Of a stretch of DNA of 64,000 bases, positions 1,376 through 50,486 are shown piece after piece. Source of the DNA: Botryllus schlosseri (Eukaryota); contig CM119371.1 of assembly GCA_051294905.1 (NCBI GenBank), positions 18,850,001 to 18,914,000 on the forward strand, read 5' to 3'. Position numbers and translations under genes: made by a program. The notes beneath the pieces are model-generated. The model did no database searches. It was not told the DNA's origin and saw only the letters and a list, made by a program, of their open reading frames with translations. Every line of letters begins with the position of its first letter. Positions within the stretch are counted from its first letter, which is position 1.

Positions 1376-1453
1376 GCCTACGACCATACCACGTTGAATA
1401 TACCCGATCTCGTCCGATCTCGGAAGTCAAGCAATGTTTGGCCCGGTTAGTAC
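1376..1453 (+). pseudogene. 5' part of 5S gene interrupted by Tx1-like copy 1
   Basis: 5S nt 1-78, then retrotransposon ORF2 sequence; the gene resumes at nt 69 at 4059. Confidence 0.93.
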
Positions 1454-4058
1454 GACGGCATTAATTCGTACGATCAAGACGAATATCTATCATCGTACCA
1501 ACACGACTGCATGCACGGGAAAGACAATGAACAAACATCGGTAATACAATCTAGCGAAATATTACAAATACTAAAAGCAATGAACAGGGAAAGGTCACCG
1601 GGTTTCGACGGCCTGACAGTGGAATTCTACCTTGCAATGTGGCAAAACATTGGCTCGAGATTAACAGAAATCATAAACAACGCGCTAATATACGGAAACA
1701 TACCGCATAGCTGGAAACGTGCTAAAATTATTTTGATTCACAAAGGAAAGGACAAAAAGGATTTAGCGAACTGGCGACCCATTTCGCTATTAAACACGGA
1801 CTACAAAATAATGGCGAAAATTCTCAACAACAGACTGGTTGAGGAAATTTCGAGCAACATCAACATGACACAGAAAGCGGGAATTCCCGGAAGACAAATG
1901 GACGTGATACACAACAATGTGAGTGCAATTGTTAATTATCATCAAGAAAAACCTTTGGAAGGTTATATAATGACAATAGACGCAAGGAAAGCCTTTGATA
2001 AGGTAAATCACCAAATGCTCTTCAAAGTGCTTGGTAAACTGCCCGTCACGAGAGAAACTCTTAAAGTGATCAAAGCTATATATGATAATCCTATTGCGAC
2101 CCTCGAGGTTAACGGCCTCCAAGCAGCCAACGTAAATTGTACGAGGGGCATTAGACAAGGATGTCCTTTGAGTATGACGCTATACGCGATTAGCGCAGAC
2201 CCGCTAGCCCACAAATTATGCACTAACGACAACATCAAGGGTATCCGAATCGGCGGGATAGAGCATAAATTAGACCAATTTGCTGATGACGTCACACTGT
2301 ATCTAAGAACAACTGACTCTATTGCCACAGTCATTAACGAATATCAAAGCTTGCACAGAGTGACAGGTCAAGATATCAACACAGACAAGACGGAAATCCT
2401 ACCGCTGAACGAAAAATCGCGTATCAAACTGCAAAAAACTGCGCACGCAGATATGCTAAAGCCAGTAATTAAGATACTGGGCCTATACCACGGTGAAAGC
2501 GAACTGCAAATGAACTTCGACAGACTCTGGCAAGGAGTCGAGAAAAGCGTAAGGCATATTAAATCAAAACGACTTTCTTGGATTGGTAAAATAATGGCGA
2601 TTAAGGCATACATAATTAGCAAAATAACTTATACATATGCCAACAAGCAAATTCCAGGTGACAAGCTCAAGCAACTCGAACGCCTCGTCTTCGGCCTACT
2701 GTGGAGTCCTGAGAAACTCGAGCAAAAAAGCAGAATGCAACTGATCAGACCTAAGCCAGAAGGAGGGATTGATATGCCAGATATCGAATCTGCAACACAA
2801 GCAAAGAGAGCAAAAAGACTACAACAACTTAGTCGACTCGAGAACCCGATTGATATCTGGCATGCAGAAGCGATATACAATCTCACAACGAAGGTGAGCG
2901 ACATAAATTGCAATTTATACAACAACCTCTACCCTCACAGAAATACATTGACGGAGAAATGGAAGAAAGAAAAGGAAATATTCGACGTAATTAAAAGTCA
3001 ATCACAGGATATACAAGAACTAAGCCAGAAAGAAATGTACCAGATCCTTGTTAAAACAAAGACGCAACAAGAAGGAAGCCGCATGGCGGACTGGAAAGAG
3101 ATATGGCTATACCAGCCCAATATCAAAGATCACATTGACAACAAGAAACGTGAGATTTCTTATCGCATTAACACTGAGAGCTACTTTACAGGCTCCAGAA
3201 AAACCAACGCAGGCTGGGTACGAAGAAAAGACGCCTACTTGAAAAACAAATGCAAATTCTGCCAACACGCCGAAGATACTCTGCGTCACACCTTCGCCGA
3301 ATGCGCAACTTACAAAAAACTGTTCTCTCTTGTAATACAGGATCTCGAGAACGACCTGCAAACGACTATTGACGCTACACCCGACGAGATCATACGCAAC
3401 GTCTACGACGGACCGCAAGCTCCGACTATAATAAAAGCTTTTATGAACGTGAAAACCCTTGTGTGGGAATGGAAAAATGCACTCGACATACAAAATGAAT
3501 ACGCCCAAAATATTGACGAACGCATCAACGATATAAGAAGTAAAATATACCGAATAATTTAAGCGAGCCCATTAAACGCTCGCGCGATAAATTGTATTGT
3601 AGTTATCGACCCACAAAACCCAACCAATCCACCTACCACCTATCCCCCCCCCAAACCTCCCATCCCATCCCTCTTTACCTCAACCCTAAACAACAAACCC
3701 CCCCACCCCCCACCCCCCCACCCCCCGCCCCCCCCCACCCCTACCCAATCCACCCCTAACCCTACCATATTCCTACCCCACCCCTCACCACGCCACCAAA
3801 TTTATATGAAAAACACACGCAAACGAGCGCCAAGTACTGGCGGCTCCTACTACGACCGCAACAACGAATCGACATCGACTGATGCGATGAGATGAGCCGA
3901 GCGACTACGAGCGCCAACCTACGACGGCGTCTACCACGACAGCGAATAAGAATCCGACTTCGGCAACGGCTGAGACGAGATGAACCGATGATGGGGAAAG
4001 ATTTTCTTTATGAAATTTTTGATATTTTATGTACATACTTGAATAAACATCACTAAAA
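1454..4058 (+). mobile_element. 5S-targeting L1/Tx1-clade non-LTR retrotransposon, copy 1 (5'-truncated)
   Basis: Matches the 3' half of 14243-19527; flanked by CGGTTAGT(AC) duplication at 1444-1453 and 4059-4068; ends AATAAACATCACTAAAA. Confidence 0.95.
1511..3562 (+). CDS. Truncated ORF2: reverse transcriptase + C-terminal CCHC, endonuclease missing
   Basis: SPGFDGL, WRPISLLNTDYKI, KAFD, GIRQGCPLS, FADD, CKFC-x8-H-x4-C. Confidence 0.9.
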   Translation: MHGKDNEQTSVIQSSEILQILKAMNRERSPGFDGLTVEFYLAMWQNIGSRLTEIINNALIYGNIPHSWKRAKIILIHKGKDKKDLANWRPISLLNTDYKIMAKILNNRLVEEISSNINMTQKAGIPGRQMDVIHNNVSAIVNYHQEKPLEGYIMTIDARKAFDKVNHQMLFKVLGKLPVTRETLKVIKAIYDNPIATLEVNGLQAANVNCTRGIRQGCPLSMTLYAISADPLAHKLCTNDNIKGIRIGGIEHKLDQFADDVTLYLRTTDSIATVINEYQSLHRVTGQDINTDKTEILPLNEKSRIKLQKTAHADMLKPVIKILGLYHGESELQMNFDRLWQGVEKSVRHIKSKRLSWIGKIMAIKAYIISKITYTYANKQIPGDKLKQLERLVFGLLWSPEKLEQKSRMQLIRPKPEGGIDMPDIESATQAKRAKRLQQLSRLENPIDIWHAEAIYNLTTKVSDINCNLYNNLYPHRNTLTEKWKKEKEIFDVIKSQSQDIQELSQKEMYQILVKTKTQQEGSRMADWKEIWLYQPNIKDHIDNKKREISYRINTESYFTGSRKTNAGWVRRKDAYLKNKCKFCQHAEDTLRHTFAECATYKKLFSLVIQDLENDLQTTIDATPDEIIRNVYDGPQAPTIIKAFMNVKTLVWEWKNALDIQNEYAQNIDERINDIRSKIYRII

Positions 4059-4461
4059 CGGTTAGTACTTGCATGGGTGACCGGCTGGGAATACCGGGTG
4101 TAGTAGGCGGCTTTTTCATTTTTTTCGCACAAACTCGATCAATTTGATCGCTGCGCTGTATTCACGTATGAAGTATCGCGCGAAATTTGTAATTGTAGTC
4201 GGCCTAACGCATTTTCATTATATCGCAATCGTCTTAGAGAAACGGACAATGTCACATAAAACGGCAGAAACTGTCACGATCTGTCGCCTACGACCATACC
4301 ACGTTGAATATACCCGATCTCGTCCGATCTCGGAAGTCAAGTAACGTTGGGCCCGGTTAGTACTTGCATGGGTGACCGGCTGGGAATACCGGGTGTAGTA
4401 GGCGGCTTTTTCATTTTTTTCGCACAAACTCGATCAATTTGATCGCTGCGCTGTATTCACG

Positions 4462-5029
4462 GCGTCCTAAACATTGAAGATATGCGGAAACTAGAAATCG
4501 CCAAGTTTATGTATCAGTTTCACTGCGGTCGTTGCCCCGAATACTTCAATGACTTCTTTACCTCTGAATCAAAAGCGCACAAGTACAACACACGCGCGTC
4601 CACGTCGTCCAAATATCATATGATCGACCGCGAAGATCATCGCTCCATCAAATATGCCGGACCTGATGTGTGGAACAGTATCCCGCCGGCCATCCGACAG
4701 TCGACGAGCATGTCCACATTCAAGTCGAAATACAAGCAATTACTACTAAATAAATACAGTACATCCTCAAGATTACCGGACCACGACTGACCTATCGATC
4801 TCGCTTCCCATGACATGCCGCCCTATTTCTTGTCGCATTCTTTTTCTATACTATCTTCTTTACTTTCATTCAGTGTGCATGCCTCCTCTTTACATCGCCT
4901 AGGCCAAGGTGGGTGTCAGATTCCATGGACTACTCCTTGTCGCTTCGACATCTTCCTGTCTTTTCATTGTATCGCATTTTTGTGGTGTATTGAACTGATA
5001 AAATTGCTAATAAACCAATGATGATGATG
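4462..5029 (+). mobile_element. 5'-truncated LINE (CR1/L2-group-like) 3' fragment in 5S spacer
   Basis: ORF 4482-4790 (KLEIAKFMY...HKYNTR...YAGPDVWNSIP...FKSKYK) resembles CR1/L2-group ORF2 C-termini; 3' UTR, AATAAA and (ATG)n tail; interrupts spacer ATTCACG-T-ATGAAG. Confidence 0.8.
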
Positions 5030-14042: not shown

Positions 14043-14410
14043 ATGAAGTATCGCGCGAAATTTGTAATTGTAGTCGGCCTAACGCATTTTCATTATATCG
14101 CAATCGTCTTAGAGAAACGGACAATGTCACATAAAACGGCAGAAACTGTCTCCATCTGTCGCCTACGACCATACCACGTTGAATATACCCGATCTCGTCC
14201 GATCTCGGAAGTCAAGCAACGTTGGGCAAGCAACGTTGGGCCGAGAGAGGCGGCGAGCGAGACGGACGTGTTTTCGACGCTGCGGAAGATTACTAGCTTA
14301 GAGGCGAGGTATTACTGGATTACGCGAAGTACTGGATATACCGAATATATTGGATAAACGAAATATACTGGATATAAGACATAACACCTGAGAAAGGTAA
14401 AAGATTGATA

Positions 14411-15598
14411 ATGGCGACGGCCATGACGACCTGCAACGCTAGTGAAGCAGAAGGAAATGCTACACAGCCATCATATGCAACAGTAACGTCGAAATCAAAG
14501 AATACAACAACATACAAGAAAACCAAGCAAGAAATACCGATCTACAAGAATACGAGAAATAGGTCTTACTTCGTAAGGGGAGAAGACAACCTTGACCTTG
14601 ATATTGTAGCAAAAGAGCTGGAAAGCAACACCATCACTGCAAAGTACCATGAACACATTGAAGGAGTATACAAACTGAAAGCCGGAACATTCGTTATCAC
14701 AATGAAAGAAGATAAAAGTGGAAAGAAGCTAAAAGACGAATTGCTACAAGAGCTGAGCCGAAACCCTGCACAGGCAGGGTTTAACGAGATAACCATAGAG
14801 CTCCCAAAGCGTCCAGCAACACATCTTATTGTCAAAGGCATAGCATGTGAAACTAAAAGGGACACGGCAGTTGAACAACTGAACAAATATGGATTCGGAA
14901 AGGTTGTCAATCAGACAAGAGTACTTTACAAGAATACTAACTGGTACAATGGCTACACAAACATCTGGATGGAAGATTTCAGAAAAGAAGATATGCCAGA
15001 AAGTATGATTATTGATGGTGTGAGATGCTGGATCCAGACTGCTGCAGATGCATATCAAATGCGATGCTACAACTGCAAGAGGACGGGTCATATGGTCAAA
15101 GATTGCCAATCCGAAAAATTGGAATGCGCGAAATGCAGTCGGCTCGGCCATAGTACAGATGAATGCAAAGCAAAACGTAGCAAAAGACAAAGCGAACACG
15201 AGGCTGAAATCGAAAATGCTGAGGGAGTCAATGATCAAATCGTAGATAACCCTGTGAGAAAAAACTCAAGCGAACCCAATGCTGGTGAGAGAATAACAGA
15301 CGATACGAACGAATCGACGAGAATAACAACAGAGAAACCAGCTGACCTGAATATGAGTCAGAATGAGGACACGAACAGAAATCAAACAGCGCCGAATAGC
15401 CCAGTGATGACGAAATCTTACACGTCAGCGGACGCTGCATACGAGAATGAAGACACAACAGAGGAACACTCCGTACAGCCTCAGGTCAGCGAGAAAAAAC
15501 GCGAATCAGGCAAATCAAATGAAATACAGACGGCCCAAAAGCTACTCAGTAAAAAGTCGTCTAATGCCAACAAAGGACCAAAACCGAGCGCCAGCTGA
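14411..15598 (+). CDS. ORF1, gag-like nucleic-acid-binding protein with two CCHC zinc knuckles
   Basis: First ATG at 14411; CYNCKRTGHMVKDC and CAKCSRLGHSTDEC; low-complexity C-terminus. Confidence 0.9.
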   Translation: MATAMTTCNASEAEGNATQPSYATVTSKSKNTTTYKKTKQEIPIYKNTRNRSYFVRGEDNLDLDIVAKELESNTITAKYHEHIEGVYKLKAGTFVITMKEDKSGKKLKDELLQELSRNPAQAGFNEITIELPKRPATHLIVKGIACETKRDTAVEQLNKYGFGKVVNQTRVLYKNTNWYNGYTNIWMEDFRKEDMPESMIIDGVRCWIQTAADAYQMRCYNCKRTGHMVKDCQSEKLECAKCSRLGHSTDECKAKRSKRQSEHEAEIENAEGVNDQIVDNPVRKNSSEPNAGERITDDTNESTRITTEKPADLNMSQNEDTNRNQTAPNSPVMTKSYTSADAAYENEDTTEEHSVQPQVSEKKRESGKSNEIQTAQKLLSKKSSNANKGPKPSAS

Positions 15599-15755
15599 GA
15601 TAAGGCGGCGAAACAACAATGCGGAAATAGAGTAACGACCAGGAACAACACAAGCAACCAAGTGAGAATAATAAAACCGAATATAAATGGTATTAAAAAA
15701 GACAACAGTAAAAGAAAGACAGCCATAATCCAGCAGGACCCCCAAAACAAAATCA

Positions 15756-18700
15756 ATGGCGAACCTATTGAAGCTAGCATCGGTTAACGTAAATGGATTA
15801 TCAAACAGACTACAGGATTTGGAACAATATATACGGACATCGAATTTGGATATATTATTGATTCAGGAAACGCATAAGATCGATAATGTGGATATACGTA
15901 ACTGGGCAGCGGATATCGGATTTATTATCTACTTCAACACAAAGAACGAAGTGAGACAATATTCTGGCACTGCGATAATGATTAAAGAACATCACGAAGG
16001 TAAAATTTTACGCCACTATAGCATGATCGAAAACCGTGCCCAATGCCTCTGCATTCAAATTGACAAATGTCCAATAACTATAATAAATATTTATGCCCCG
16101 TCTGGACAATCCGCAGATGCGAGAAAGTTACGTGACGATTTCCTAATCCAACTAGAATCAGAAATCCATGAAATTGAAGTCCCGATTATAATGGGTGGTG
16201 ATTTCAACCTAATTATTGACAAAAAAGACACTCGAATTAAACAGAACCTCCATGTCAGAAGCGCCGAGAGACACTTTGAAAAGCTAACTAATGACGCGGA
16301 ACTGATTGACGTGTTTAGGAGTAAACATCCTCTTGCCGAAGTATTCACTTACGTCACTGGAAAAAACGCGAGGAGACTAGATCGTTTCTACGCATCTTGT
16401 GAACTCATGAGCCATGTCCAGAATGCAGGACATGAAAATAACCTTGTGGCTGACCACATAAGTCCGACAATAACACTCGCAATTGAGCCAAGCACTCTAT
16501 GGGGAAGAAAAAATTGGAAGTGTAATAATGACCTTTTGCGAGATGACGTGTACCGAGATATAATATCTAATCTCATCAGCTTTGAAGAGAATAATATCCA
16601 ACACTGCCATGGCATTCAACAATGGTGGGACAGACTAAAAGATAGAATTGCCAACGTAAGTAAGAGATATGAGATAGACAAATATAAAACTTGTGATCCT
16701 CAGATAACGTATCAGAGGGTAACGGGAAAATTGCGCATGTTAACCAAAATTGACCGTTGCGAAGGTGAACCTAACACGACGAGACAATTTTGGCAAGAAT
16801 TAAAGACAAGACGACGCAAGACCGAGCTTAAAGAACTTCAGCTCAGAGATGGAACGGTAACGACTGACCGTAATATTATTGCTAACCAGATTGAACAATT
16901 TTACACAGAATTGTGGACCCGACACGACGGCATTAATTCGTACGATCAAGACGAATATCTATCATCGTACCAACACGACTGCATGCACGGGAAAGACAAT
17001 GAACAAACATCGGTAATACAATCTAGCGAAATATTACAAATACTAAAAGCAATGAACAGGGAAAGGTCACCGGGTTTCGACGGCCTGACAGTGGAATTCT
17101 ACCTTGCAATGTGGCAAAACATTGGTTCGAGATTAACAGAAATCATAAACAACGCGCTAATATACGGAAACATACCGCATAGCTGGAAACGTGCTAAAAT
17201 TATTTTGATTCACAAAGGAAAGGACAAAAAGGATTTAGCGAACTGGCGACCCATTTCGCTATTAAACACGGACTACAAAATAATGGCGAAAATTCTCAAC
17301 AACAGACTGGTTGAGGAAATTTCGAGCAACATCAACATGACACAGAAAGCGGGAATTCCCGGAAGACAAATGGACGTGATACACAACAATGTGAGTGCAA
17401 TTGTTAATTATCATCAAGAAAAACCTTTGGAAGGTTATATAATGACAATAGACGCAAGGAAAGCCTTTGATAAGGTAAATCACCAAATGCTCTTCAAAGT
17501 GCTTGGTAAACTGCCCGTCACGAGAGAAACTCTTAAAGTGATCAAAGCTATATATGATAATCCTATTGCGACCCTCGAGGTTAACGGCCTCCAAGCAGCC
17601 AACGTAAATTGTACGAGGGGCATTAGACAAGGATGTCCTTTGAGTATGACGCTATACGCGATTAGCGCAGACCCGCTAGCCCACAAATTATGCACTAACG
17701 ACAACATCAAGGGTATCCGAATCGGCGGGATAGAGCATAAATTAGACCAATTTGCTGATGACGTCACACTGTATCTAAGAACAACTGACTCTATTGCCAC
17801 AGTCATTAACGAATATCAAAGCTTGCACAGAGTGACAGGTCAAGATATCAACACAGACAAGACGGAAATCCTACCGCTGAACGAAAAATCGCGTATCAAA
17901 CTGCAAAAAACTGCGCACGCAGATATGCTAAAGCCAGTAATTAAGATACTGGGCCTATACCACGGTGAAAGCGAACTGCAAATGAACTTCGACAGGCTCT
18001 GGCAAGGAGTCGAGAAAAGCGTAAGGCATATTAAATCAAAACGACTTTCTTGGATTGGTAAAATAATGGCGATTAAGGCATACATAATTAGCAAAATAAC
18101 TTATACATATGCCAACAAGCAAATTCCAGGCGACAAGCTCAAGCAACTCGAACGCCTCGTCTTCGGCCTACTGTGGAGTCCTGAGAAACTCGAGCAAAAA
18201 AGCAGAATGCAACTGATCAGACCTAAGCCAGAAGGAGGGATTGATATGCCAGATATCGAATCTGCAACACAAGCAAAGAGAGCAAAAAGACTACAACAAC
18301 TTAGTCGACTCGAGAACCCGATTGATATCTGGCATGCAGAAGCGATATACAATCTCACAACGAAGGTGAGCGACATAAATTGCAATTTATACAACAACCT
18401 CTACCCTCACAGAAATACATTGACGGAGGAATGGAAGAAGGAAAAGGAAATATTCGACGTAATTAAAAGCCGATCACAGGATATACAAGAACTAAGCCAG
18501 AAAGAAATGTACAAAATCCTTGTTAAAACGAAGACGCAACAAGGAGGAAGCCGCATGGCGGACTGGAAAGAGATATGGCTATACCAGCCCAATATCAAAG
18601 ATCACATTGACAACAAGAAACGTGAGATTTCGTATCGAATTAACACTGAGAGCTACTTTACAGGCTCCAGGAAAACCAACGCAGGCTGGGTACGAAGAAA

Positions 18701-19034
18701 AGACGCCTACTTGAAGAACAAATGCAAATTCTGCCAACACGCCGAAGATACTCTGCGTCACACCTTCGCCGAATGCGCAACTTACAAAAAACTGTTCTCT
18801 CTTGTAATACAGGATCTCGAGAACGACCTGCAAACGACTATTGACGCTACACCCGACGAGATCATACGCAACGTCTACGACGGACCGCAAGCTCCGACTA
18901 TAATAAAAGCTTTTATGAACGTGAAAACCCTTGTGTGGGAATGGAAAAACGCACTCGACATACAAAATGAATACGCCCAAAATATTGACCAACGCATCCA
19001 AGATATAAGAAGTAAAATATACCGAATAATATAA
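15756..19034 (+). CDS. ORF2: APE endonuclease + reverse transcriptase + CCHC (1092 aa, intact)
   Basis: APE motifs NVNGL, IQET, NIYAP, GGDFN, RLDRFY, DH; RT motifs PGFDG, RPISLLN, QGCPLS, FADD; C-terminal CKFC...H...C. Confidence 0.96.
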   Translation: MANLLKLASVNVNGLSNRLQDLEQYIRTSNLDILLIQETHKIDNVDIRNWAADIGFIIYFNTKNEVRQYSGTAIMIKEHHEGKILRHYSMIENRAQCLCIQIDKCPITIINIYAPSGQSADARKLRDDFLIQLESEIHEIEVPIIMGGDFNLIIDKKDTRIKQNLHVRSAERHFEKLTNDAELIDVFRSKHPLAEVFTYVTGKNARRLDRFYASCELMSHVQNAGHENNLVADHISPTITLAIEPSTLWGRKNWKCNNDLLRDDVYRDIISNLISFEENNIQHCHGIQQWWDRLKDRIANVSKRYEIDKYKTCDPQITYQRVTGKLRMLTKIDRCEGEPNTTRQFWQELKTRRRKTELKELQLRDGTVTTDRNIIANQIEQFYTELWTRHDGINSYDQDEYLSSYQHDCMHGKDNEQTSVIQSSEILQILKAMNRERSPGFDGLTVEFYLAMWQNIGSRLTEIINNALIYGNIPHSWKRAKIILIHKGKDKKDLANWRPISLLNTDYKIMAKILNNRLVEEISSNINMTQKAGIPGRQMDVIHNNVSAIVNYHQEKPLEGYIMTIDARKAFDKVNHQMLFKVLGKLPVTRETLKVIKAIYDNPIATLEVNGLQAANVNCTRGIRQGCPLSMTLYAISADPLAHKLCTNDNIKGIRIGGIEHKLDQFADDVTLYLRTTDSIATVINEYQSLHRVTGQDINTDKTEILPLNEKSRIKLQKTAHADMLKPVIKILGLYHGESELQMNFDRLWQGVEKSVRHIKSKRLSWIGKIMAIKAYIISKITYTYANKQIPGDKLKQLERLVFGLLWSPEKLEQKSRMQLIRPKPEGGIDMPDIESATQAKRAKRLQQLSRLENPIDIWHAEAIYNLTTKVSDINCNLYNNLYPHRNTLTEEWKKEKEIFDVIKSRSQDIQELSQKEMYKILVKTKTQQGGSRMADWKEIWLYQPNIKDHIDNKKREISYRINTESYFTGSRKTNAGWVRRKDAYLKNKCKFCQHAEDTLRHTFAECATYKKLFSLVIQDLENDLQTTIDATPDEIIRNVYDGPQAPTIIKAFMNVKTLVWEWKNALDIQNEYAQNIDQRIQDIRSKIYRII

Positions 19035-19527
19035 GCGAGCCATTTAAACGCTCACGCGATAAATCATGTTGCATTTATCGACCGGCAAAACGCAACCAAT
19101 CCACCTGCAACCTATCCAAACCACCAAACCTCCCATCCCACTCTACCCCACCCCTAAACCAACACCTACTTCCCCAATCTACCCTATCCACCACCCCCCA
19201 TGCCCTATCCCTACCCCACCCACCCCTACCCTATTCCTACCCCACCCACCACCACTCCACCGAATTTATATGAAAATCACACGCAAACGAGCGCCAAGTA
19301 CTGGCGGCTCCTTCTACGACCGCGACAACGAATCGACATCGACTGCTATGATGAGATGAGATGAGACGAGCGACTACGAGCGCCAACTTACGACGGCGTC
19401 TACTACGACCGCGTATACAAATACTACTTCGGCAACGGCTGAGACGAGATGACCAGATGATGGGGAAAGATTTTCTTTATGAAATTTTTGAAAATTTATG
19501 TATATATTTGAATAAACATCACAAAAA

Positions 19528-19929
19528 CGGTTAGTACTTGCATGGGTGACCGGCTGGGAATACCGGGTGTAGGTAGGCGGCTTTTGCACTTTTGTCGCAC
19601 AAACTCGATCAATTCAATTGCTGTGCACTATTCTCATATGAACTATCCCGCGGAATTTGTAATTGTAGTCGGCCTAACGCATTTTAATTATATCGCAATC
19701 GCCTTATGCTCAGAGAAACGGACAATGTCACATAAAACGGCAGAAACTGTCACAATCTGTCGCCTACGACCATACCACGTTGAATATACCCGATCTCGTC
19801 CGATCTCGGATGTCAAGCAACGTTGGGCCCGGTTAGTACTTGCATGGGTGACCGGCTGGGAATACCGGGTGTAGGTAGGCGGCTTTTGGACTTTTTTCGC
19901 ACAAACTCGATCAATTTGATTGCACGTAC
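19528..19929 (+). rRNA. 5S 3' half (19528-19578) and one complete 5S gene (19762-19880) between copies 2 and 3
   Basis: 5S core sequence. Confidence 0.93.
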
Positions 19930-20082
19930 TTCGTACTTCGTACTTCGTACTTCGTAAGGGGAGAAGACAACCTTGACCTTGATATTGTAGTAAAAGAGCT
20001 GGAAAGCAACACCATCACTGCAGAATACCATGAACACATTGAAGGAATATACAAACTGAAAGCCGGAACATTCGTTATCACA

Positions 20083-21168
20083 ATGAAAGAAGAGAAAAGT
20101 GGAAAGAAGCTAAAAGATGAATTGCTACAGCAGCTAAGCCAAAACCCTACGCAAGCAAAGTTTAACGAGATAACCATAGAGCTCCCAAAGCGTCCAGCAA
20201 CACATCTTATTGTCAAAGGCATAGCATGTGAAACTAAAAGGGACACGGCAGTTGAACAACTGAACAAATATGGATTCGGAAAGGTTGTCAATCAGACAAG
20301 AGTACTTTACAAGAATACTAACTGGTACAATGGCTTCACTAACATCTGGATGGAAGATTTCAGTAAAGAAGACATGCCAGAAAGTATGATTATTGATGGT
20401 GTGAGATGTTGGATCAAGACTGCTGCAGATGCATATCAAAAGCGATGCTACAACTGCAACGGAACGGGTCACATGATCAGAGATTGCCCAGCCGAAAAAT
20501 TAGAATGCACGAAGTGCGGCGGGCTTGGCCATGGTGCAGAAACATGCAAAGCAAAACGTGGCAAAAGACAAAACGAACACGAGGCTGGAATCGAAAAGGC
20601 TGAGGGAGTCAATGTTCAAATCGCAGATAAACCGGTGAGAGTCAACTCAAACGAACCCCATGCTGGTGAGAGAAAAACCGACGAAACGAACGAATCGGCG
20701 AAAACAACAACAGAGAAACCAGCTGACCTGAATATGAGTCAGAATGAGGACACGAGCAGAAATGAAACAGCGCCGAATAGCCCAGTGATGACGAAATCTT
20801 ACACGTCACCGGACGCTGCATACGAGGATGAAGACACAACAGAGGAACACTCCGTACAGCCTCAGGTCAGCGAGAAAAAACGCGAATCAGGCAAATCAAA
20901 TGAAACACAGACGGCCCAAAAGTTACTCAGTAAAAAGTCGTATAATGCCAACAAAGGACAAAAATCGAGCGCCAGCTGTGATAAGGCGGCGAAACAACAA
21001 AACGGAAATAGAGTAACGACCAGAAACAACACAAGCAACCAAGTGAGGATAACGAAACCGAATATAAATGGCATTAAAAAAGACAACACGAAAAAGAAGA
21101 CAGCCATAATCCCGCAAGACCCCCAAAACAGAACCAATGGCGAACCTATTGAAGCTAGCATCGATTAA
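20083..21168 (+). CDS. ORF1 of copy 3 (N-truncated; overlaps the ORF2 start at 21137)
   Basis: Homologous to 14411-15598; two CCHC knuckles. Confidence 0.85.
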   Translation: MKEEKSGKKLKDELLQQLSQNPTQAKFNEITIELPKRPATHLIVKGIACETKRDTAVEQLNKYGFGKVVNQTRVLYKNTNWYNGFTNIWMEDFSKEDMPESMIIDGVRCWIKTAADAYQKRCYNCNGTGHMIRDCPAEKLECTKCGGLGHGAETCKAKRGKRQNEHEAGIEKAEGVNVQIADKPVRVNSNEPHAGERKTDETNESAKTTTEKPADLNMSQNEDTSRNETAPNSPVMTKSYTSPDAAYEDEDTTEEHSVQPQVSEKKRESGKSNETQTAQKLLSKKSYNANKGQKSSASCDKAAKQQNGNRVTTRNNTSNQVRITKPNINGIKKDNTKKKTAIIPQDPQNRTNGEPIEASID

Positions 21169-21246
21169 CGTAAATGGACTATCAAACAGACTACCGGATT
21201 TAGAACAATATATACAGACATCGAATTTGGATATATTATTGATTCA
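21137..21246 (+). pseudogene. ORF2 N-terminus of copy 3, cut off by the Penelope-like insertion
   Basis: MANLLKLASINVNGL...LLIQ, then foreign sequence. Confidence 0.9.
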
Positions 21247-21284
21247 ATATTGCAGCAAACAATACGCTCATATTGTAAATTTAT

Positions 21285-21324
21285 TCCACTGGAAGCTTTT
21301 CGTCTGGCTCTCTTCAGCAGTGAA
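21285..21324 (-). ncRNA. Minimal type I hammerhead ribozyme (second copy, Penelope 3' UTR)
   Basis: Reverse complement of 22982-23021. Confidence 0.8.
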
Positions 21325-21485
21325 CGCCAGAAAATGAGGTTAACCAAGTTCGAAATATAGGAAGAATTTTGTCGTTGTGACGTAATAATGACAAGTACAC
21401 AAGTCGCGAACGGCAGTAAACAGCGCACGGTTACGGTACAGCACACACGAAATCAGCTGTAAAACAGCCGAATGACAAAACAACA

Positions 21486-22373
21486 CTAATGGAAGATTCC
21501 CAGCGTGTAGAGATGTTCCTTCTGGCGGCAGAGGATCGGCTTTTGCAGCTTTATAATGGTTGATTCAAGGACCTTTAAATGAAAAAGAGAACGACCACGA
21601 GCAACTATGGAAAACTGATTGATATTGTAATGTTTTGCACACTCTGGGTGTTTCAATAGGTGCTGTCCGATGGCAGAATTACATGCTGTTACTTGGTCAT
21701 AATCATGCATGGTAACTAGGGACTGTGATGATGAAGCAGACATGTCATCACCCTGCGAATTCCTAATTTGACGTGGGACATGTTGACGAATTCTTTGTTG
21801 CAAGCGTTGAGATGTGCGACCCACATACCGACTGTCACATCGGCACGTATATTGGTAAATTATGTAACTCTGATCAATCGCAGGAAGCACATCCTTACGC
21901 GTTGCTGGTAGCAAAGACTTCGTAGTAAATATGACACGGGGTTCCACTTGTGGGAAACAATGACTCACGGAGGACTTAATCTGTTTTTCAAACCTGTTGC
22001 AGGCTGTGCCTATCCACGGGAGATGCAAATAAACTGGGCACCTTCTCGGTCCAAACGGCTTATCTTTGTGGAAATCTTGTATTTTACGTTCAATAGTTAC
22101 TTTGACAATACGCTCAGGATATCCATTGGCAAGGAAAATGGATTTGATAGTATTTATTTCACAATCCAGTTTGTCATTGCTGCAAATCATCAGGGCCCTG
22201 TGTACCAGGGTTCTTATCAAATTGATTTTACGTTTCACAGGGCAAAACGAATCCCATGAAAGATACTGGCCACTGAATGTAGTCTTACGGTAGACAGATG
22301 TAACAAAATTATTGTTCATCTTCTCAACAAAGACATCCAAAAACGGTATCGAATTGTTATTCTCTTTTTTCAA
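21486..22373 (-). CDS. Penelope RT thumb + GIY-YIG endonuclease (continuation after frameshift)
   Basis: IPFLDV, VYRK, NGYP, IIYQYTCRCDSRYVGRT, RIRQH, IGQH, LES. Confidence 0.9.
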   Translation of the reverse strand: MKKENNNSIPFLDVFVEKMNNNFVTSVYRKTTFSGQYLSWDSFCPVKRKINLIRTLVHRALMICSNDKLDCEINTIKSIFLANGYPERIVKVTIERKIQDFHKDKPFGPRRCPVYLHLPWIGTACNRFEKQIKSSVSHCFPQVEPRVIFTTKSLLPATRKDVLPAIDQSYIIYQYTCRCDSRYVGRTSQRLQQRIRQHVPRQIRNSQGDDMSASSSQSLVTMHDYDQVTACNSAIGQHLLKHPECAKHYNINQFSIVARGRSLFHLKVLESTIIKLQKPILCRQKEHLYTLGIFH

Positions 22374-22887
22374 CAGTAAACTTGAGAGAAGGGTGAAGGT
22401 TATTTAATTTGGCCAGAAACAAATCACATTGAGCTTCATTATTAAACATGACAAAAGTGTCATCAACATAGCGATAGTACATCAATGGCCGATCGGCACT
22501 ATCCAACAATCTCTTTTCATGAAACCCCACAAAGATGTTAGCCAAGATGGAGCCGAGTGGAGAACCCATGGCCAAACCATCTGTCTGTTTGTATATGGTG
22601 TTATTAAAACTAAATTCAACACCGCAAGTCGCCATTCGCATAAGTTTTACGAACATGGATTTGGAAAATGGCGGAGACGGAAGCTCACCACCATAAAGTG
22701 CATTGGCGCAGATCTCTATGGTTTCCTCAATAGGGACATTGGTGAAGAGGCTCGATATATCAAAGGAGCTGAGGTATACCTTGGAGGCATCATGATCTAT
22801 ATTATTGATAATATTAGCAAACGTGAACGAGTCCCGAATGCAGTTGTCAACATAGAGCGCACTCACCGGCTTAAGGAATTCCACCAT
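22357..22887 (-). CDS. Penelope-type reverse transcriptase core (fragment, frameshifted)
   Basis: SFDISSLFTNVP, QTDGLAMGSPLG, YYRYVDD. Confidence 0.9.
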   Translation of the reverse strand: MVEFLKPVSALYVDNCIRDSFTFANIINNIDHDASKVYLSSFDISSLFTNVPIEETIEICANALYGGELPSPPFSKSMFVKLMRMATCGVEFSFNNTIYKQTDGLAMGSPLGSILANIFVGFHEKRLLDSADRPLMYYRYVDDTFVMFNNEAQCDLFLAKLNNLHPSLKFTVEKRE

Positions 22888-22981
22888 CCACTTCGTTCGC
22901 GACTTGTGTACTTGTCATTATTACGTCACAACGACAAAATTCTTCCTATATTTCGAACTTGGTTAACCTCATTTTCTGGCG

Positions 22982-23021
22982 TTCACTGCTGAAGAGAGCC
23001 AGACGAAAAGCTTCCAGTGGA
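22982..23021 (+). ncRNA. Minimal type I hammerhead ribozyme in Penelope pseudo-LTR
   Basis: TTCACTG-CTGAAGA-G(AGCCAGA)C-GAAA-AGCT-TC^CAGTGGA. Confidence 0.8.
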
Positions 23022-23083
23022 ATAAATTTACAATATGAGCGTATTGTTTGCTGCAATATTGAAGTTCTGTACTTCGAAAAGCC

Positions 23084-26000
23084 TATTATTGATTCAGGAA
23101 ACGCACAAGATCGATAATGTGGATATACGTAACTGGGCAGCAGATATCGGATTTATTATCTACTTCAACACAAAGAACGAAGTGAGACAATATTCTGGAA
23201 CTGCGATAATGATTAAAGAACATCACGAAGGTAAAATTTTACGCCACTATAGCATGATCGAAAACCGTGCACAATGCCTCTGCATTCAAATTGACAAATG
23301 CCCAATTGCTATAATAAATATTTATGCCCCGTCTGGACAATCCGCAGATGCGAGAAAGTTACGTGACGATTTCCTAATCCAACTAGAATCAGAAATCCAT
23401 GAAATTGAAGTCCCGGTTATAATGGGTGGTGATTTCAACCTAATTATTGACAAAAAAGACACTCGAATTAAACAGAACCTCCATGTTAGAAGCGCCGAGA
23501 GACACTTTGAAAAGCTAACTAACGACGCGGAACTGATTGACGTATTTAGGAGTAAACATCCTCTTGCTGAAGTATTCACTTACGTCACTGGAAAAAACGC
23601 GAGGAGACTAGATCGTTTCTACGCATCTTGTGAACTCATGAGCCATGTCCAGAATGCAGGACATGAAAATAACCTTGTGGCTGACCACATAAGTCCGACA
23701 ATAACACTCGCAATTGAGCCAAGCACTCTATGGGGAAGAAAAAATTGGAAGTGTAATAATGACCTTTTGCGAGATGACGTGTACCGAGATATAATATCTA
23801 ATCTCATAAGCTTTGAGGAGAATAATATTCAGCACTGCCACGGAATACAACAATGGTGGGACAGACTAAAAGATAGAATTGCCAACGTAAGCAAGAGATA
23901 TGAAATAGACAAATATCAAACCTGTGACCCTCAGATAACGTATCAGAGGGTAAAAGGAAAATTGCGCATGTTAACCAAAATTGACCGTTGCGAAGGTGAA
24001 CCTAACACGACGAGACAATTTTGGCAAGAATTGAAGACCAGACGGCGCAAGATCGAGCTTCAAGAACTTCAGCTCAGAGATGGAACGGTAACGACCGACC
24101 GTAATATTATTGCTAACCAGATTGAACAATTTTACACAGAACTGTGGACCCGACACGACGGCACTAATTCGTACGATCAAGACGAATATCTATCCTCGTA
24201 TCAGCAAGACTGCATGCACGGGAAAGACAATGAACAAACATCGGTAATACAATCTAGCGAAATATTACAAATACTGAAAGCAATGAACAGGGAAAGGTCA
24301 CCGGGGTTCGATGGCCTAACAGTGGAATTCTACCTTGCAATGTGGAAAAACATTGGCTCGAGATTAACAGAAATCATAAACAACGCGCTAATATACGGAA
24401 ACTTACCGCATAGTTGGAAACGTGCTAAAATTATTTTGATTCACAAAGGAAAGGACAAAAAGGATTTAGCGAACTGGCGACCCATTTCGCTGTTAAACAC
24501 GGACTACAAAATAATGGCGAAAATTCTCAACAACAGACTGGTTGAGGAGATTTCGAGCAACATCAACATGACACAGAAAGCGGGAATTCCCGGAAGACAA
24601 ATGGACGTGATACACAACAATGTGAGTGCAATTGTTAATTATCATCAAGAAAAACCTTTGGAAGGTTATATAATGACCATAGACGCAAGAAAAGCCTTTG
24701 ATAAGGTCGATCACCAAATGCTGTTCAAAGTGCTTGATAAACTGCCCGTCACGAGAGAAACTCTTAAAGTGATCAAAGCCATATATGATAATCCTATTGC
24801 GACCCTCGAGGTTAACGGCCTCCAAGCAGCAAATGTAAATTGTACGAGGGGCATTAGACAAGGATGTCCTTTGAGTATGACACTATACGCGATTAGCGCA
24901 GACCCTCTAGCCCACAAACTATGCACTAACGACAACATCAGAGGTATCCGAATCGGCGGGATAGAGCATAAATTAGACCAGTTTGCCGATGACGTCACAC
25001 TGTATCTAAGAACAACTGACTCTATTACAGCAGTCCTTAACGAATATCAAAGCTTGCATAGAGTGACAGGTCAAGATATCAACACAGGCAAGACGGAAAT
25101 CCTACCACTGAACGAAAAATCGCGTAACAGATTGCAAAAAACTGAGCACGCACATATGCTAAAGCCAGTAATTAAGATACTGGGCCTATACCACGGAGAA
25201 AGCGAACTGCAAATGAACTTCGACAGACTCTGGCAAGGAGTCGAGAAAAGCGTAAGGCATATTAAATCAAAACGGCTTTCTTGGATTGGTAAAATAACGG
25301 CGATTAAGGCATACATAATTAGCAAAATAACTTATACATATGCCAACAAGCAAATTCCAGACGACAAGCTCAAGCAACTCGAACGCCTCGTCTTCGGCCT
25401 ACTGTGGAGTCCTGAGAAGCTCGAGCAGAAAAGCAGAATGCAACTGATCAGACCTAAGCCAGAAGGAGGGATTGATATGCCAGATATCGAATCTGCAACA
25501 CAAGCAAAGAGAGCAAAAAGACTACAACAACTTAGTCGACTCGAAAACCCGATTGATATCTGGCATGCAGAAGCGATATACAATCTGACAACGAAGGTGA
25601 GAGATATAAATTGCAATTTATACAACAACCTCTACCCTCACAGAAATACATTGACGGAGGAATGGAAGAAGGAAAAGGAAATTTTCGACGTAATTAAAGG
25701 CCAATCACAGGATATACAAGAACTAAGCCAGAAAGAAATGTACAAGATCCTTGTTAAAACGAAGACGCAACAAGGAGGAAGCCGCATGGCGGACTGGAAA
25801 GAGATATGGCTATACCAGCCCAATATCAAAGATCACATTGACAACAAGAAACGTGAGATTTCGTATCGCATTAACACTGAGAGCTACTTTACAGGCTCCA
25901 GAAAAACCAACGCAGGCTGGGTACGAAGAAAAGACGCCTACTTGAAAAACAAATGCAAATTCTGCCAACACGCCGAAGATACTCTGCGCCACACCTTCGC

Positions 26001-26265
26001 CGAATGCGCAACTTACAAAAAACTGTTCTCTCTTGTAATACAGGATCTCGAGAACGACCTGCAAACGACTATTGACGCTACACCCGACGAGATCATACGC
26101 AACGTCTACGACGGACCGCAAGCTCCGACTATAATAAAAGCTTTTATGAACGTGAAAACCCTTGTGTGGGAATGGAAAAACGCACTCGACATACAAAATG
26201 AATACGCCCAAAATATTGACCAACGCATCTCCGATATAAGAAGTAAAATATACCGAATAATTTAA
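23084..26265 (+). CDS. Remainder of copy 3 ORF2 (APE lacking first motif, RT, CCHC), open frame
   Basis: Colinear with 15756-19034 from LLIQET onward. Confidence 0.9.
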
Positions 26266-29200
26266 GCGAGCCATTTAAACGCTTGCGCGATAAATCATAT
26301 TGCATTTATCGACCCACAAAACGCAACCAATCCACCCACAACATATCCAAACCTCCCATCCCACTCTGCCACACCGCTAAACAAACATATATACTCCCCC
26401 AATCTACCCCATCCACCACCACCCCATGCCCTATTCCTACACCACCCACCCCTACCCTATTCCTACCCCACCCACCACCACTCCACCAAATTTATATGAA
26501 AATCACACGCAAACGAGCGCCAAGCACTGGCGGCTCCTTCTACGACCGCGACCTCGAATCGACATCGACTGCTACGATGAGATGAGATGAGACGAGCGAC
26601 TACGAGCGCCAACTTACGATGGCGTCTACTACGACCGCGTATACAAATCCTACTTCGGCAACGGCTGAGACGAGATGACCCGATGATGGGGAAAGTTTTT
26701 TCTTTATGAAATTTTTGAAATTTTATGTACATATTTGAATAAACATCACAAAAACGGTTAGTACTTGCATGGGTGACCGGCAGGGAATACCGGGTGTAGT
26801 ATTAGGCTGCTTTTGCATTTTTGTCGTACAAACTCGATCAATTCGATTGCTGTGCACTATTCTCATATGAACTATCGCGCGAAATTTGTAATTGTAGTCG
26901 GCCTAACGCATTTTCATTATATCGCAAACGCCGTAGAGAAACGGACAATGTCACATAAAACGGCAGAAACTGTCACAATCTGTCGCCTACGACCATACCA
27001 CGTTGAATATACCCGATCTCGTCCGATCTCGGAAGTCAAGCAACGTTGGGCCCGGTTAGTACTTGCATGGGTGACCGGCTGGAAATACCGGGTGTAGTAG
27101 GCGGCTTTTTCATTTTTTTCGCACAAACTCGATCAATTTGATCGCTGCGCTGTATTCACGTATGAAGTATCGCGCGAAATTTGTAATTGTAGTCGGCCTA
27201 ACGCATTTTCATTATATCGCAATCGTCTTAGAGAAACGGACAATGTCACATAAAACGGCAGAAACTGTCTCGATCTGTCGCCTCTACGACCATACCACGT
27301 TGAATATACCCGATCTCGGAAGTCAAGTAACGTTGGGCTCGGTTAGTACTTGCATGGGTGACCGGCTGGGAATACCGGGTGTAGTAGGCGGCATTTTCAT
27401 TTTTTTCGCACAAACTCGATCAATTTGATCGCTGCGCTGTATTCACGTATGAAGTATCGCGCGAAATTTGTAATTGTAGTCGGCCTAACGCATTTTCATT
27501 ATATCGCAATCGTCTTAGAGAAACGGACAATGTCACATAAAACGGCAGAAACTGTCACGATCTGTCGCCTACGACCATACCACGTTGAATATACCCGATC
27601 TCGGAAGTCAAGTAACGTTGGGCCAGGTTAGTACTTGCATGGGTGACCGGCTGGGAATACCGGGTGTAGTAGGCGGCTTTTTCATTTTTTTCGCACAAAC
27701 TCGGTCAATTTGATCGCTGCGCTGTATTCACGTATGAAGTATCGCGCGAAATTTGTAATTGTAGTCGGCCTAACGCATTTTCATTGTATCGCAATAGTCT
27801 TAAAGAAACGGACAATGTCACATAAAACGGCAGAAACTGACAGGATCTGTCGCCTACGACCATACTACGTTGAATATACCCGATCTCGGAAGTCAAGTAA
27901 CGTTGGGCCCGGTTAGTACTTGCATGGGTGACCGGCTGGGAATACCGGGTGTAGTAGGCGGCATTTTAATTTTTTTCGCACAAACTCGATCAATTTGATC
28001 ACTGCGCTGTATTCACGTATGAAGTATCGCGCGAAATTTGTAATTGTAGTCGGCCTAACACATTTTCATGATATCGCAATCTCGTGCTGTTTTGACATGA
28101 CGAAAATTCCAATAAAATAACTACTCTGACAGCGAGAGCTTACTTGTCTGTTTTTCGACCAGACACAAGAACAGAGCAGGACGCCAATGATATTCGACCT
28201 CTAATTGGTCAGAAAGTGCCTCGGCGCAATAAGACTATCTACTATTCTGGCGTCTCGTCGACAGCATGGCGACGGAAATTGTCACATAAAACGGCACAAA
28301 TCGTAACCACTGTCGCCTACGACCATACCACGTTGAATATACCCGATCTCGTCCGATCTCGGATGTCAAGCAACGTTGGGCCCGGTTAGTACTTGCATGG
28401 GTGACCGGCTGGGAATACTGGGTGTAGGTAGGCGGCTTTTGGACTTTTTTCGCACAAACTCGATCAATTTGATTGCACGTACATCTATGAATGTCATCAT
28501 TTGCTGGCCGCCGCTTCTTTCAGCTATGAACTCGCGCTCAATTTGTAGTTGTACGGGGCCGTTTTCAATATATCGCCATCTCGTGCCGTTTTGGCATGAC
28601 GAGAATTGCAATAAAATAAACTCTGACACGGAGAGCTTAAGTTTTATGTGTGTTTTTTGACCAGTTCGTCCGAAAGTGCCTAAGAGCAATCAGACAATCT
28701 GCTTTTCAGGCGTCTCGTTGACAGCGTGGCGACGGAAATTGTCACATAAAACGGCACAGATCGTAACCGCCGTCGCCTACGACCATACCACGTTGAATAC
28801 ACCCGATCTCGTCCGATCTCGGAAGTCAAGCAACGTTGGGCCCGGTTAGTACTTGCATGGGTGACCGGCAGGGAATACCGGGTGTAGTATTAGGCTGCTT
28901 TTGCATTTTTGTCGTACAAACTCGATCAATTCGATTGCTGTGCACTATTCTCATATGAACTATCGCGCGAAATTTGTAATTGTAGTCGGCCTAACGCATT
29001 TTCATTATATCGCAAACGCCGTAGAGAAACGGACAATGTCACATAAAACGGCAGAAACTGTCACAATCTGTCGCCTACGACCATACCACGTTGAATATAC
29101 CCGATCTCGTCCGATCTCGGAAGTCAAGCAACGTTGGGCCCGGTTAGTACTTGCATGGGTGACCGGCTGGAAATACCGGGTGTAGTAGGCGGCTTTTTCA

Positions 29201-29789
29201 TTTTTTTCGCACAAACTCGATCAATTTGATCGCTGCGCTGTATTCACGTATGAAGTATCGCGCGAAATTTGTAATTGTAGTCGGCCTAACGCATTTTCAT
29301 TATATCGCAATCGTCTTAGAGAAACGGACAATGTCACATAAAACGGCAGAAACTGTCACGATCTGTCGCCTACGACCATACCACGTTGAATATACCCGAT
29401 CTCGGAAGTCAAGTAACGTTGGGCCAGGTTAGTACTTGCATGGGTGACCGGCTGGGAATACCGGGTGTAGTAGGCGGCTTTTTCATTTTTTTCGCACAAA
29501 CTCGGTCAATTTGATCGCTGCGCTGTATTCACGTATGAAGTATCGCGCGAAATTTGTAATTGTAGTCGGCCTAACGCATTTTCATTATATCGCAATAGTC
29601 TTAAAGAAACGGACAATGTCACATAAAACGGCAGAAACTGACAGGATCTGTCGCCTACGACCATACTACGTTGAATATACCCGATCTCGGAAGTCAAGTA
29701 ACGTTGGGCCCGGTTAGTACTTGCATGGGTGACCGGCTGGGAATACCGGGTGTAGTAGGCGGCATTTTAATTTTTTTCGCACAAACTCG

Positions 29790-50000: not shown

Positions 50001-50329
50001 TTGTAGTCGGCCTAACGCATTTTAATTATATCGCAATCGCCTTATGCTTAGAGAAACGGACAATGTCACATAAAACGGCAGAAACTGTCACAATCTGTCG
50101 CCTACGACCATACCACGTTGAATATACCCGATCTCGTCCGATCTCGGATGTCAAGCAACGTTGGGCCCGGTTAGTACTTGCATGGGTGACCGGCTGGGAA
50201 TACCGGGTGTAGGTAGGCGGCTTTTGGACTTTTTTCGCACAAACTCGATCAATTTGATTGCACGTACATCTATGAATGTCATCATTTGCTGGCCGCCGCT
50301 TCTTTCAGCTATGAACTCGCGCTCAATTT
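47019..50329 (+). rRNA. 5S rDNA array block (9 genes: 47114, 47631, 47933, 48393, 48691, 48986, 49281, 49798, 50100)
   Basis: 5S cores; 2167-bp periodicity (47376 vs 49543). Confidence 0.95.
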
Positions 50330-50486
50330 CCCAGCAAACACAAAACCGTAAAAGGATCATCCGGGATCATCTCGATTAGGTTCTGATTTTCTAAGTGTCG
50401 AGGGAATGTCTAAAATACGTAGTAGGATGGTCTTGTGGTTATATTCAATCAGAATAAATTCATACTCGGTGTTGTTCCATCTCATG

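Follow-up and report, generated by a model that had tools for sequence, protein, structure and literature searches.

Recurrent insertion of an L1-superfamily LINE at one position of the 5S rRNA genes of Botryllus schlosseri, with a probable preference for a short target motif

The 64,000-nucleotide stretch of Botryllus schlosseri DNA analysed here (contig CM119371.1, positions 18,850,001 to 18,914,000, forward strand; G000:C1:18850001-18914000 in our coordinates; hereafter the window) contains three copies of a long interspersed nuclear element (LINE) that are inserted in 5S ribosomal RNA (rRNA) genes. Across the genome, nine or more independent insertions of this LINE share the same 3′ junction in the 5S gene; they are spread over no fewer than three contigs and over 5S arrays of two kinds. 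We consider it probable (roughly 0.7) that these copies represent a recently active family of the L1 superfamily with a Tx1-like layout, whose insertions follow a preference for a short motif, with the 5S gene as the main site rather than as a strict one.

Three LINE copies joined to one position of the 5S gene

Rfam identifies 106 5S rRNA matches in the window, every one of them on the + strand, and the window is therefore a 5S ribosomal DNA (rDNA) array. Three A-rich stretches with high AT skew and no 5S match are the LINE copies, denoted copies 1, 2 and 3. The 12-mer AATAAACATCAC occurs exactly three times in the window (ends at 4053, 19522 and 26749), a count that by itself is not significant, at least three matches with at most one mismatch being found in 6 of 100 shuffles. 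After each occurrence come, in this order, (T/A)AAAA and CGGTTAGTAC, which begins at nucleotide (nt) 69 of the 5S gene and continues into the remainder of the gene, and all three copies are in the orientation of the gene. The 3′ junction is ambiguous by one base: it falls at nt 68/69 as read, and at nt 69/70 if the element is taken to include the C that follows the A run. The original prediction, in which three differing copies abut 5S nt 69 on their 3′ side and run in the direction of the gene, agrees with these junctions, and the 5′ sides of the copies are all unlike.

Copy 2 (14243..19527, + strand) is full length, its 5285 bp comprising a 5′ untranslated region (UTR; 14243..14410, +), two open reading frames (ORF1 and ORF2) and a 3′ UTR (19035..19527, +) with AATAAA at 19511-19516 and the element end CACAAAAA. 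It opens with GAGAGAG immediately past 5S nt 68, with a small duplicated 5S piece (AAGCAACGTTGGGC) at the 5′ junction. What remains of the disrupted 5S gene on the 5′ side (nt 1-68) is at 14161..14242 (+), where Rfam reports a partial 5S match (14161-14241), and the 3′ part, from nt 69 (CGGTTAGTAC...), is at 19528..19581 (+); the first C of this 3′ part may have been copied from the element RNA. The sense strand of copy 2 is poor in T runs (9 runs of T4 or longer in 5285 nt, one of them T5), and the AT skew of 14243-19527 reaches +0.35.

Copy 1 (1454..4058, +) is 5′-truncated and corresponds to positions 2682-5285 of copy 2 with 96.1% identity (BLAST). It begins after 5S nt 78 and is bordered by a 10-bp target-site duplication of CGGTTAGTAC (5S nt 69-78) at 1444..1453 and 4059..4068 (+). 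This copy retains an open ORF2 stretch of 703 amino acids (aa) and is a member, within a 5S gene, of the older lineage marked by the end 'CACTAAAA'. Copy 3 (~19945..26754, +) is 5′-truncated at copy 2 position 322; a GTACTTC repeat in the 5S spacer marks its 5′ junction, and on the 3′ side it joins 5S nt 69. By BLAST it matches copy 2 positions 322-1623 plus 1611-5285, and it is longer than copy 2 because a fragment of a Penelope-like element (~21247..23083, - strand), with reverse transcriptase (RT) and GIY-YIG domains, is nested within its ORF2. The nested fragment matches RVT_1 (E 1.1e-12) and GIY-YIG (E 3.9e-04, below the curated cut-off), and a 13-bp duplication (TATTATTGATTCA) lies on both sides of it.

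Recurrence of the 5S junction across the genome

A search of the 495-Mb assembly with the 3′-terminal 1528 nt of copy 2 finds 41 or more matching places spread over many contigs, a lower bound given that 40 of 174 candidates were scored in that search. The 19-mer TGAATAAACATCACWAAAA yields 32 exact matches and, with at most one mismatch, 81 matches compared with 8 for its reversed control. The 16-mer ATAAACATCACWAAAA yields 51 exact matches, of which 34 are followed by CGG and are taken here as family ends, 12 belong to an unrelated repeat that continues with CCGATATGG, and 5 continue otherwise. Twelve of the 34 family ends are located in 5S genes on four contigs, and 22 are dispersed elsewhere. 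The original prediction had held the family to be specific to the 5S gene, a view to be given up if most genomic copies lay outside it; strict specificity is unsupported because 22 of the 34 ends are outside 5S genes.

Eleven of the 5S ends are exact junctions, on contigs C1 (4), C9 (3), C11 (2) and C17 (2), with none in the control search. The twelfth, L025, has 5S nt 1 to ~71-73 in its 5′ flank and nt 69-77 in its 3′ flank, followed by foreign sequence. Beyond the exact pattern there are two more 5S junctions, one at C1:18937158 (with four A's) and a decayed one at C9:7319224. The C9 5S array is composed of regular 1041-bp units, unlike the dense array of the window.

The 5′ junctions of nine 5S copies could be resolved (L026, the two C17 copies and C1:18937158 are left out of this comparison), and all nine differ from one another while sharing the one 3′ junction. 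Copy 1 joins 5S nt 78 at copy 2 position 2682, copy 2 joins nt 68 at position 1, and copy 3 joins the 5S spacer at position 322. The remaining six join the 5S gene at ~nt 33-35 (L031, copy 2 position 38), ~nt 61 (L045, position 777), nt 78 (L046, position 1, with a 10-bp duplication as in copy 1), nt 68-71 (L047, position 842), nt 67 (L027, a 443-bp copy) and nt 71-73 (L025, position 2033). Array duplication fails to explain the recurrence because the nine 5′ junctions are all different. Three ends, L018-L020, have identical flanks inside one array.

The L025 locus (L025/L053, G000:C11:14549046-14555500) holds an older-lineage copy whose downstream 5S sequence ends after nt 77. The sequence that cuts this 5S remainder was considered as a second 5S-targeting element and dropped, having just 3 genomic matches; the remainder may be interrupted by a deletion or by another insertion.

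Junction structure and target motif

All 34 family ends show AAAA-C-GG. The copy L039 lies inside a tRNA-Glu-like gene, with GGTTCG on both sides of the insertion. The empty site can be read from an intact tRNA-Glu(CTC) gene of that locus, which lies on the minus strand at a distance of ~6 kb and has the sequence ...GGCGGCCCG-GGTTCG-ATTCCC; where the 3′ junction of L039 has a C, this target has a G. Comparison of L039 with this intact gene indicates that the element RNA supplied the junction C and the target supplied the GG. A base-level comparison of 14 off-target copies with copy 2 resolved 10 of them. In eight of these (L039, L040, L036, L049, L037, L034, L050, L041) the target lacks the C, and in two (L033, L042) it has one, approximately the chance expectation. 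The element end reads ...CAC(A/T)AAAAC, with AATAAA 12 nt upstream and without a copied poly(A) tail. A templated C shifts the nick expected in the 5S gene from nt 68/69 to nt 69/70, two positions that the sequence cannot separate.

The 10 resolved off-target sites have C at position −2 in 9 cases (binomial p ~1e-5, C frequency 0.22) and G at −4 in 7 cases, and T follows the GG at +3 in 16 of the 22 off-target ends (p ~3e-5). The 5S site (GGGCCC|GGTTAG) matches at all three positions, with C at −2, G at −4 and T at +3. We attribute the upstream part of the motif to the protein because pairing with the end of the RNA cannot account for it, and the APE domain would be the part of the protein that reads the target.

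Near-cognate off-target sites comprise a tRNA-Glu gene (GGCCCG|GGTTCG), a tRNA-like site (GGGTGCG|GGTTCG), a third T-arm-like site (GGTTCAAGTCC) and one position of a tRNA-derived short interspersed nuclear element (SINE; CCGGCCG|GGTCATACC). At the last of these, L036 and L049 occupy two different SINE copies, and two further ends with one mismatch lie at the same SINE sequence.

The LINE has landed repeatedly in the tRNA-derived SINE (...GGTTCGATCCCCGGCCGGGTCATACCAAAGACTCGAAAATTGG...), where it occupies two fixed positions (L036, L049 and L042; flanks of L009, L015 and L022). The full-length off-target copy L042 (G000:C6:13208187-13218186) carries an extra TTAG between the target CGG and the GAGAGAG of the element, and CGG with TTAG reads CGGTTAG, as in the 5S site. 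This TTAG could be due to chance or be a trace of a 5S-resident source.

Coding capacity and recent activity

ORF1 of copy 2 (14411..15598, +) encodes 395 aa with two CCHC knuckles at approximately residues 218-252 (zf-CCHC, E 4.6e-07), and a Pfam search of it returned no RRM and no Transposase_22 match. It ends at a premature stop at codon 396; in L046, L031 and L044 the frame continues to 455-458 aa, and in L046 and L031, where ORF2 is open as well, it overlaps the start of ORF2 by 32 nt. ORF2 of copy 2 (15756..19034, +) is open over 1092 aa. Pfam places the APE domain at nt 15777-16397 (+; Exo_endo_phos, residues 8-214, E 1.9e-12) and the RT domain at nt 17226-17873 (+; RVT_1, residues 491-706, E 4.5e-29); FADD is found at residue 666, and a C-terminal CX2CX8HX4C motif at nt 18723-18776 (+; residue 990). 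The term intact applies to the open 1092-aa ORF2 of copy 2, with its APE, RT and Cys motif, but not to its ORF1, with its premature stop. An open 1092-aa ORF2 is present in 4 of 13 copies examined (copy 2, L031, L046, L047), and two of these four have both ORFs at full length.

Copies on different contigs are closely similar: L046 (C9) and L031 (C1) are 99.9% identical over 5245 nt, with unlike 5′ junctions, and copy 2 and L047 (C9) are 99.64% identical over 4444 nt. In the raw reads of RNA run X24, of which ~3% was sampled, 470 reads map to the element, 463 of them second mates. Read depth with the first mate on the minus strand reaches 43 near the 3′ end, compared with at most 1.5 for the other strand, and under the usual library convention this strand bias means element-sense RNA. 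Loose read ends occur at 16100, 19350 and 19376, and their sequence is presumably a template-switch oligo. No loose read ends were seen past 19527 in X24, for which the element alone served as reference, so that this result carries little weight on 5S read-through. The contig runs X15, X17 and X19 attest to the presence of the element, and their status as RNA is a guess. The cross-contig pairs, the open ORFs and the strand-biased RNA together support a recently active family.

A model of motif preference

In the model that we favor, integration would proceed by target-primed reverse transcription at a motif of approximately G-N-C-N|G-G-T(T), for which 5S nt 65-73 (GGCCC|GGTT) would be the best and by far the most abundant genomic match. 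The element RNA would end in ...AAUAAACAUCAC(A/U)AAAAC with no long poly(A) tail copied, and first-strand synthesis would start from the nicked bottom strand, paired with the GG(U) that directly follows the C; priming at this GG(U) would leave AAAA-C-GG in every copy. In the 5S gene the nick would be at nt 68/69 or 69/70, and a second-strand break 9-10 bp downstream would produce the duplication (C)GGTTAGTAC. The preference would not be absolute, with tRNA T-arms, one tRNA-derived SINE position and looser GG(T) sites used as well. By a rough count the genome holds 13,470 5S candidates, so that a motif of 7-8 informative bases would already steer a large share of insertions to 5S genes. Co-transcription by RNA polymerase III from the 5S promoter is unlikely because the insertion splits what we take to be the internal control region and because a T4 run lies 29 nt into the element.

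Several points weigh against this model. The 34 family ends were chosen by the exact 16-mer plus CGG, which leaves diverged copies uncounted, and the 5S copy number is a rough count of candidates. The upstream motif was derived from 10 off-target sites resolved on both sides, two of which are the same SINE position and are not independent; L048, L043 and L032 fall outside this resolved set, and at L044 the entire CGG seems foreign to the target. The motif could arise from microhomology priming, chromatin or survival rather than from nicking specificity. With respect to the RNA, 398 of the 470 X24 reads are 95-99% alike to copy 2, and therefore stem from other copies.

Lineages differing in location and alternative sources of specificity

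The 3′-terminal 881 nt of 20 copies, less the search 19-mer, served to compute a maximum-likelihood tree. The tree contains one clade of nine copies, seven in 5S genes and two in tRNA-like sites, with the end CACAAAAA; the remaining lineages end in CACTAAAA and are mostly dispersed. Among the exact 19-mer ends, 10 of 14 of the 'A' type are located in 5S genes vs 2 of 18 of the 'T' type (Fisher p 8e-4), and three of the four off-targets of the young lineage are tRNA T-arms. The two older-lineage copies in 5S genes are copy 1 and L025, the latter carrying the label 'other' in the tree and later placed in a 5S gene. Terminal branches are ~0.006-0.034 for dispersed copies and 0-0.016 for 5S-resident copies of the young clade. 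The APE region is nearly identical between the 5S-rich and the dispersed lineages, and a comparison of the whole ORF2 (eight 'A' vs nine 'T' copies) found no fixed or near-fixed position between them. One explanation for the lineage contrast is survivorship, in which arrays shed old insertions and unique DNA retains off-targets.

A second explanation, which we consider unlikely on balance, places part of the specificity in the RNA. The flank included in a read-through transcript from a 5S-resident source (...AAAAC-GGUUAGUAC) would pair with the nicked 5S gene, so that the choice of target would be partly inherited, and a dispersed source would offer GG(U) followed by unrelated bases. The lineages do differ in location (10/14 vs 2/18) without an ORF2 residue that separates them, internal priming on a longer RNA is evident from the templated C and from the absence of a poly(A) tail, and the extra TTAG of L042 resembles the CGGTTAG of 5S. 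For other LINEs, integration at a specific target is said to be strengthened when element and target are transcribed together (PMC4494074, citing Eickbush 2000 and Fujimoto 2004). However, no read-through reads were seen past 19527 with the element alone as reference, age and array turnover account for the same contrast, and sister copies in the tree share no flank beyond GG(T); differences in the 3′ UTR between the lineages could matter as well.

Somewhat less likely again is a strictly 5S-specific enzyme, with the dispersed copies as rare accidents that pile up as 5S arrays purge old insertions. The longer terminal branches of the dispersed copies, the lineages without a fixed ORF2 difference, the presence of older-lineage copy 1 and L025 in 5S genes, and the young lineage itself (10/14 in 5S genes, with 3 of the 4 other sites being near-cognate tRNA T-arms) are all in line with such an enzyme, but 4 of the 14 young-lineage ends are off-target even so, older off-targets often share just GG or GGT with 5S, which amounts to a wide tolerance, and 22/34 ends are outside 5S genes. 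It is very improbable that there is no real specificity, with L1-like priming wherever 2-3 bases pair and numerous, tolerant and duplicating 5S arrays collecting copies, as the universal junction GG (which could be plain microhomology), the thousands of 5S candidates (13,470, a rough figure) and the identical flanks of L018-L020 in one array might suggest: 9/9 resolved 5S insertions combine unlike 5′ junctions with the same 3′ junction, 0/12 5S junctions are at the other GG and CGG sites of 5S, the C at −2 (9/10) is upstream of the nick and beyond the reach of RNA-end pairing, and tRNA-Glu and one SINE position have been hit repeatedly.

A sister family at tRNA genes

We also identified a sister family with the end TGAATAAAAATCACAAAAA-CGG, including L051 (G000:C1:18220700-18222260) and L052 (G000:C4:1364000-1365600). 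L051 shares 71-74% nucleotide identity with copy 2 over two aligned segments, and the C-terminus of its ORF2 is ~64% identical in amino acids to copy 2 over the aligned part. In both L051 and L052 the sister-family end is followed by CGGTTCGATTCCCGG..., with a T run too in L051; we read the sequence after these ends as the 3′ part of a tRNA gene, which would make them T-arm insertions (CGGTTCGATTCC...). The L052 flank corresponds to the 3′ end of the tRNA-Glu gene near L039, bar a few changes at the very end, and L052 is positioned ~10 kb from the L039 insertion at the identical tRNA-Glu position. Among the matches listed, other sister-family ends are at CGGTTACAACCC repeats. At least four sister-family ends (C1:5915885, C1:6252707, C3:32980316 and C3:33305811) are followed by (C/A)GGTTACAACCC(T/C)(G/A)GTTTT, a common flank that suggests a further repeated target.

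A broader proposal, which we put forward tentatively and regard as improbable, is that these related LINEs (the 5S-rich and dispersed lineages and the ~72%-identical tRNA T-arm sister family) share the core C-N|GGT(T), and that the choice among 5S genes, tRNA genes and anywhere else depends on the RNA 3′ end and its flank more than on the protein. If true, a copy would owe its target preference to where its source copy sits, and the preference could switch with the enzyme unchanged.

Relation to known LINEs

The best solved-structure match of ORF2 is human L1 ORF2p (E 3.6e-75, residues 342-896). The solved L1 structures matched are 9k6g, 8sxt, 8uw3 and 8c8j, together with the EN domain 1vyb (E ~1e-10). 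Because of its APE, RT and Cys-His layout and of L1 ORF2p as the closest match, the element is an APE-RT LINE of the L1 superfamily (L1/Tx1 group). With human L1 ORF2p it shares the APE-RT-Cys layout and the FADD motif. Human L1 primes from poly(A) at loose TTTT/A sites and has an ORF1 of Transposase_22 type; the present element combines a knuckle-type ORF1 with a G/C-containing motif and with a defined end other than poly(A). The LINEs R1 and R2 also reside in rDNA, and target sequence carried downstream in their RNA aids the precision of their 3′ junctions; they differ from the present family in belonging to other clades and in their 28S target, and R2, which has a restriction-like endonuclease, is matched at just E 7e-20.

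The closest protein in a search of 5.8 billion proteins is 53% identical to ORF2, and the next are 39, 37 and 30% identical, all of them unnamed; the only named protein among the 120 matches listed is a hypothetical protein of a limpet with 27% identity. A cluster look-up of 10 relatives returned no names, and the protein atlas returned 'hypothetical protein' clusters only.

As described in PMC4494074, the LINEs of the Tx1 clade include Tx1, Keno (U2 small nuclear RNA), Kibi and Koshi (microsatellites) and the crocodilian Tx1-Mar, and many Tx1-clade LINEs of animals favor one repeated target, e.g., small RNA genes. An ORF1 with RRM/zf-CCHC variants is consistent with this clade according to PMC5203782. 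The target preference of the present family fits the clade as these texts describe it, and its knuckle-type ORF1 may do so: zf-CCHC is present, RRM and Transposase_22 are unmatched by Pfam, and a preference for one repeated target is seen in the 12 5S junctions at one position and in the off-target motif. Membership of the clade is defined by RT phylogeny, and the likeness described here is one of layout and preference. Set beside Tx1 in this manner, the copies would represent a new family within the known target-specific LINEs of L1/Tx1 type.

Mutsu elements (MutsuDr of zebrafish) are, according to PMC5340908, ~5.5 kb LINEs with two ORFs that disrupt the 5S genes of tandem arrays; they comprise several subfamilies, each with its own target sequence, end in a 3′ poly(A) stretch and have a target ~20 nt from the 5′ terminus of 5S. 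Both Mutsu and the present family insert into 5S rRNA genes. The comparison of insertion sites, which had been proposed as a check and which we made from the published description of Mutsu, shows that the positions differ (nt 68-70 here vs ~nt 20 in Mutsu). The present family is furthermore found mostly outside 5S genes and ends in AAAA-C without a long tail, in contrast to the poly(A) reported for Mutsu in the same source. A site-specific LINE in the strict sense of R2 or Mutsu has nearly all of its copies in one target; in the present family the proportion in 5S genes is 12/34.

Jockey-like LINEs of ~5 kb regularly interrupt the 5S arrays of Tribolium freemani, with more divergent copies elsewhere (PMC11202950). 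These elements differ from the present family in belonging to the Jockey superfamily and in their described association with satellite and spacer organization, and the accessible text of that study gives no fixed position within the gene. The accessible text of a review (PMC10946416) cites Mutsu as a LINE inserted into 5S and knows no transposable-element insertion within the 5S gene. No LINE at 5S nt 68-70 is reported in the literature searched, with Repbase Reports outside this literature and a catalogued family therefore possible. The site represents a second, independent LINE insertion position within the 5S gene, Mutsu being the only other in the literature searched.

LINEs with a specific target attract study both as natural site-specific integrases templated by RNA and as models of parasites residing in multicopy 'safe' genes. 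As a lead toward site-specific integration, the present family is weaker than originally hoped, given its substantial genomic off-target record. The young 5S-rich lineage, the older dispersed lineages with indistinguishable ORF2 and the tRNA sister family constitute a natural series for shifts in target choice, and the most useful leads lie in the contrast between lineages and in the sister family at tRNA genes.

Other features of the 5S array in the window

At 26985-41314 and 56371-63824 of the window, the 5S array is organized in higher-order repeats, in which equal-scoring 5S variants return each 3851 bp (e.g., 30874, 34725, 38576) and which include 5S variants of 122 nt and shortened ones of 109 nt. 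A stretch of ~6 kb inside the array, at 50200-56400, has a lower G+C content (0.37-0.42) and is without a 5S gene. The sole ORF of at least 120 aa that overlaps it (49820-50212) is nearly all outside the stretch, which is probably a further insertion or a decayed element.

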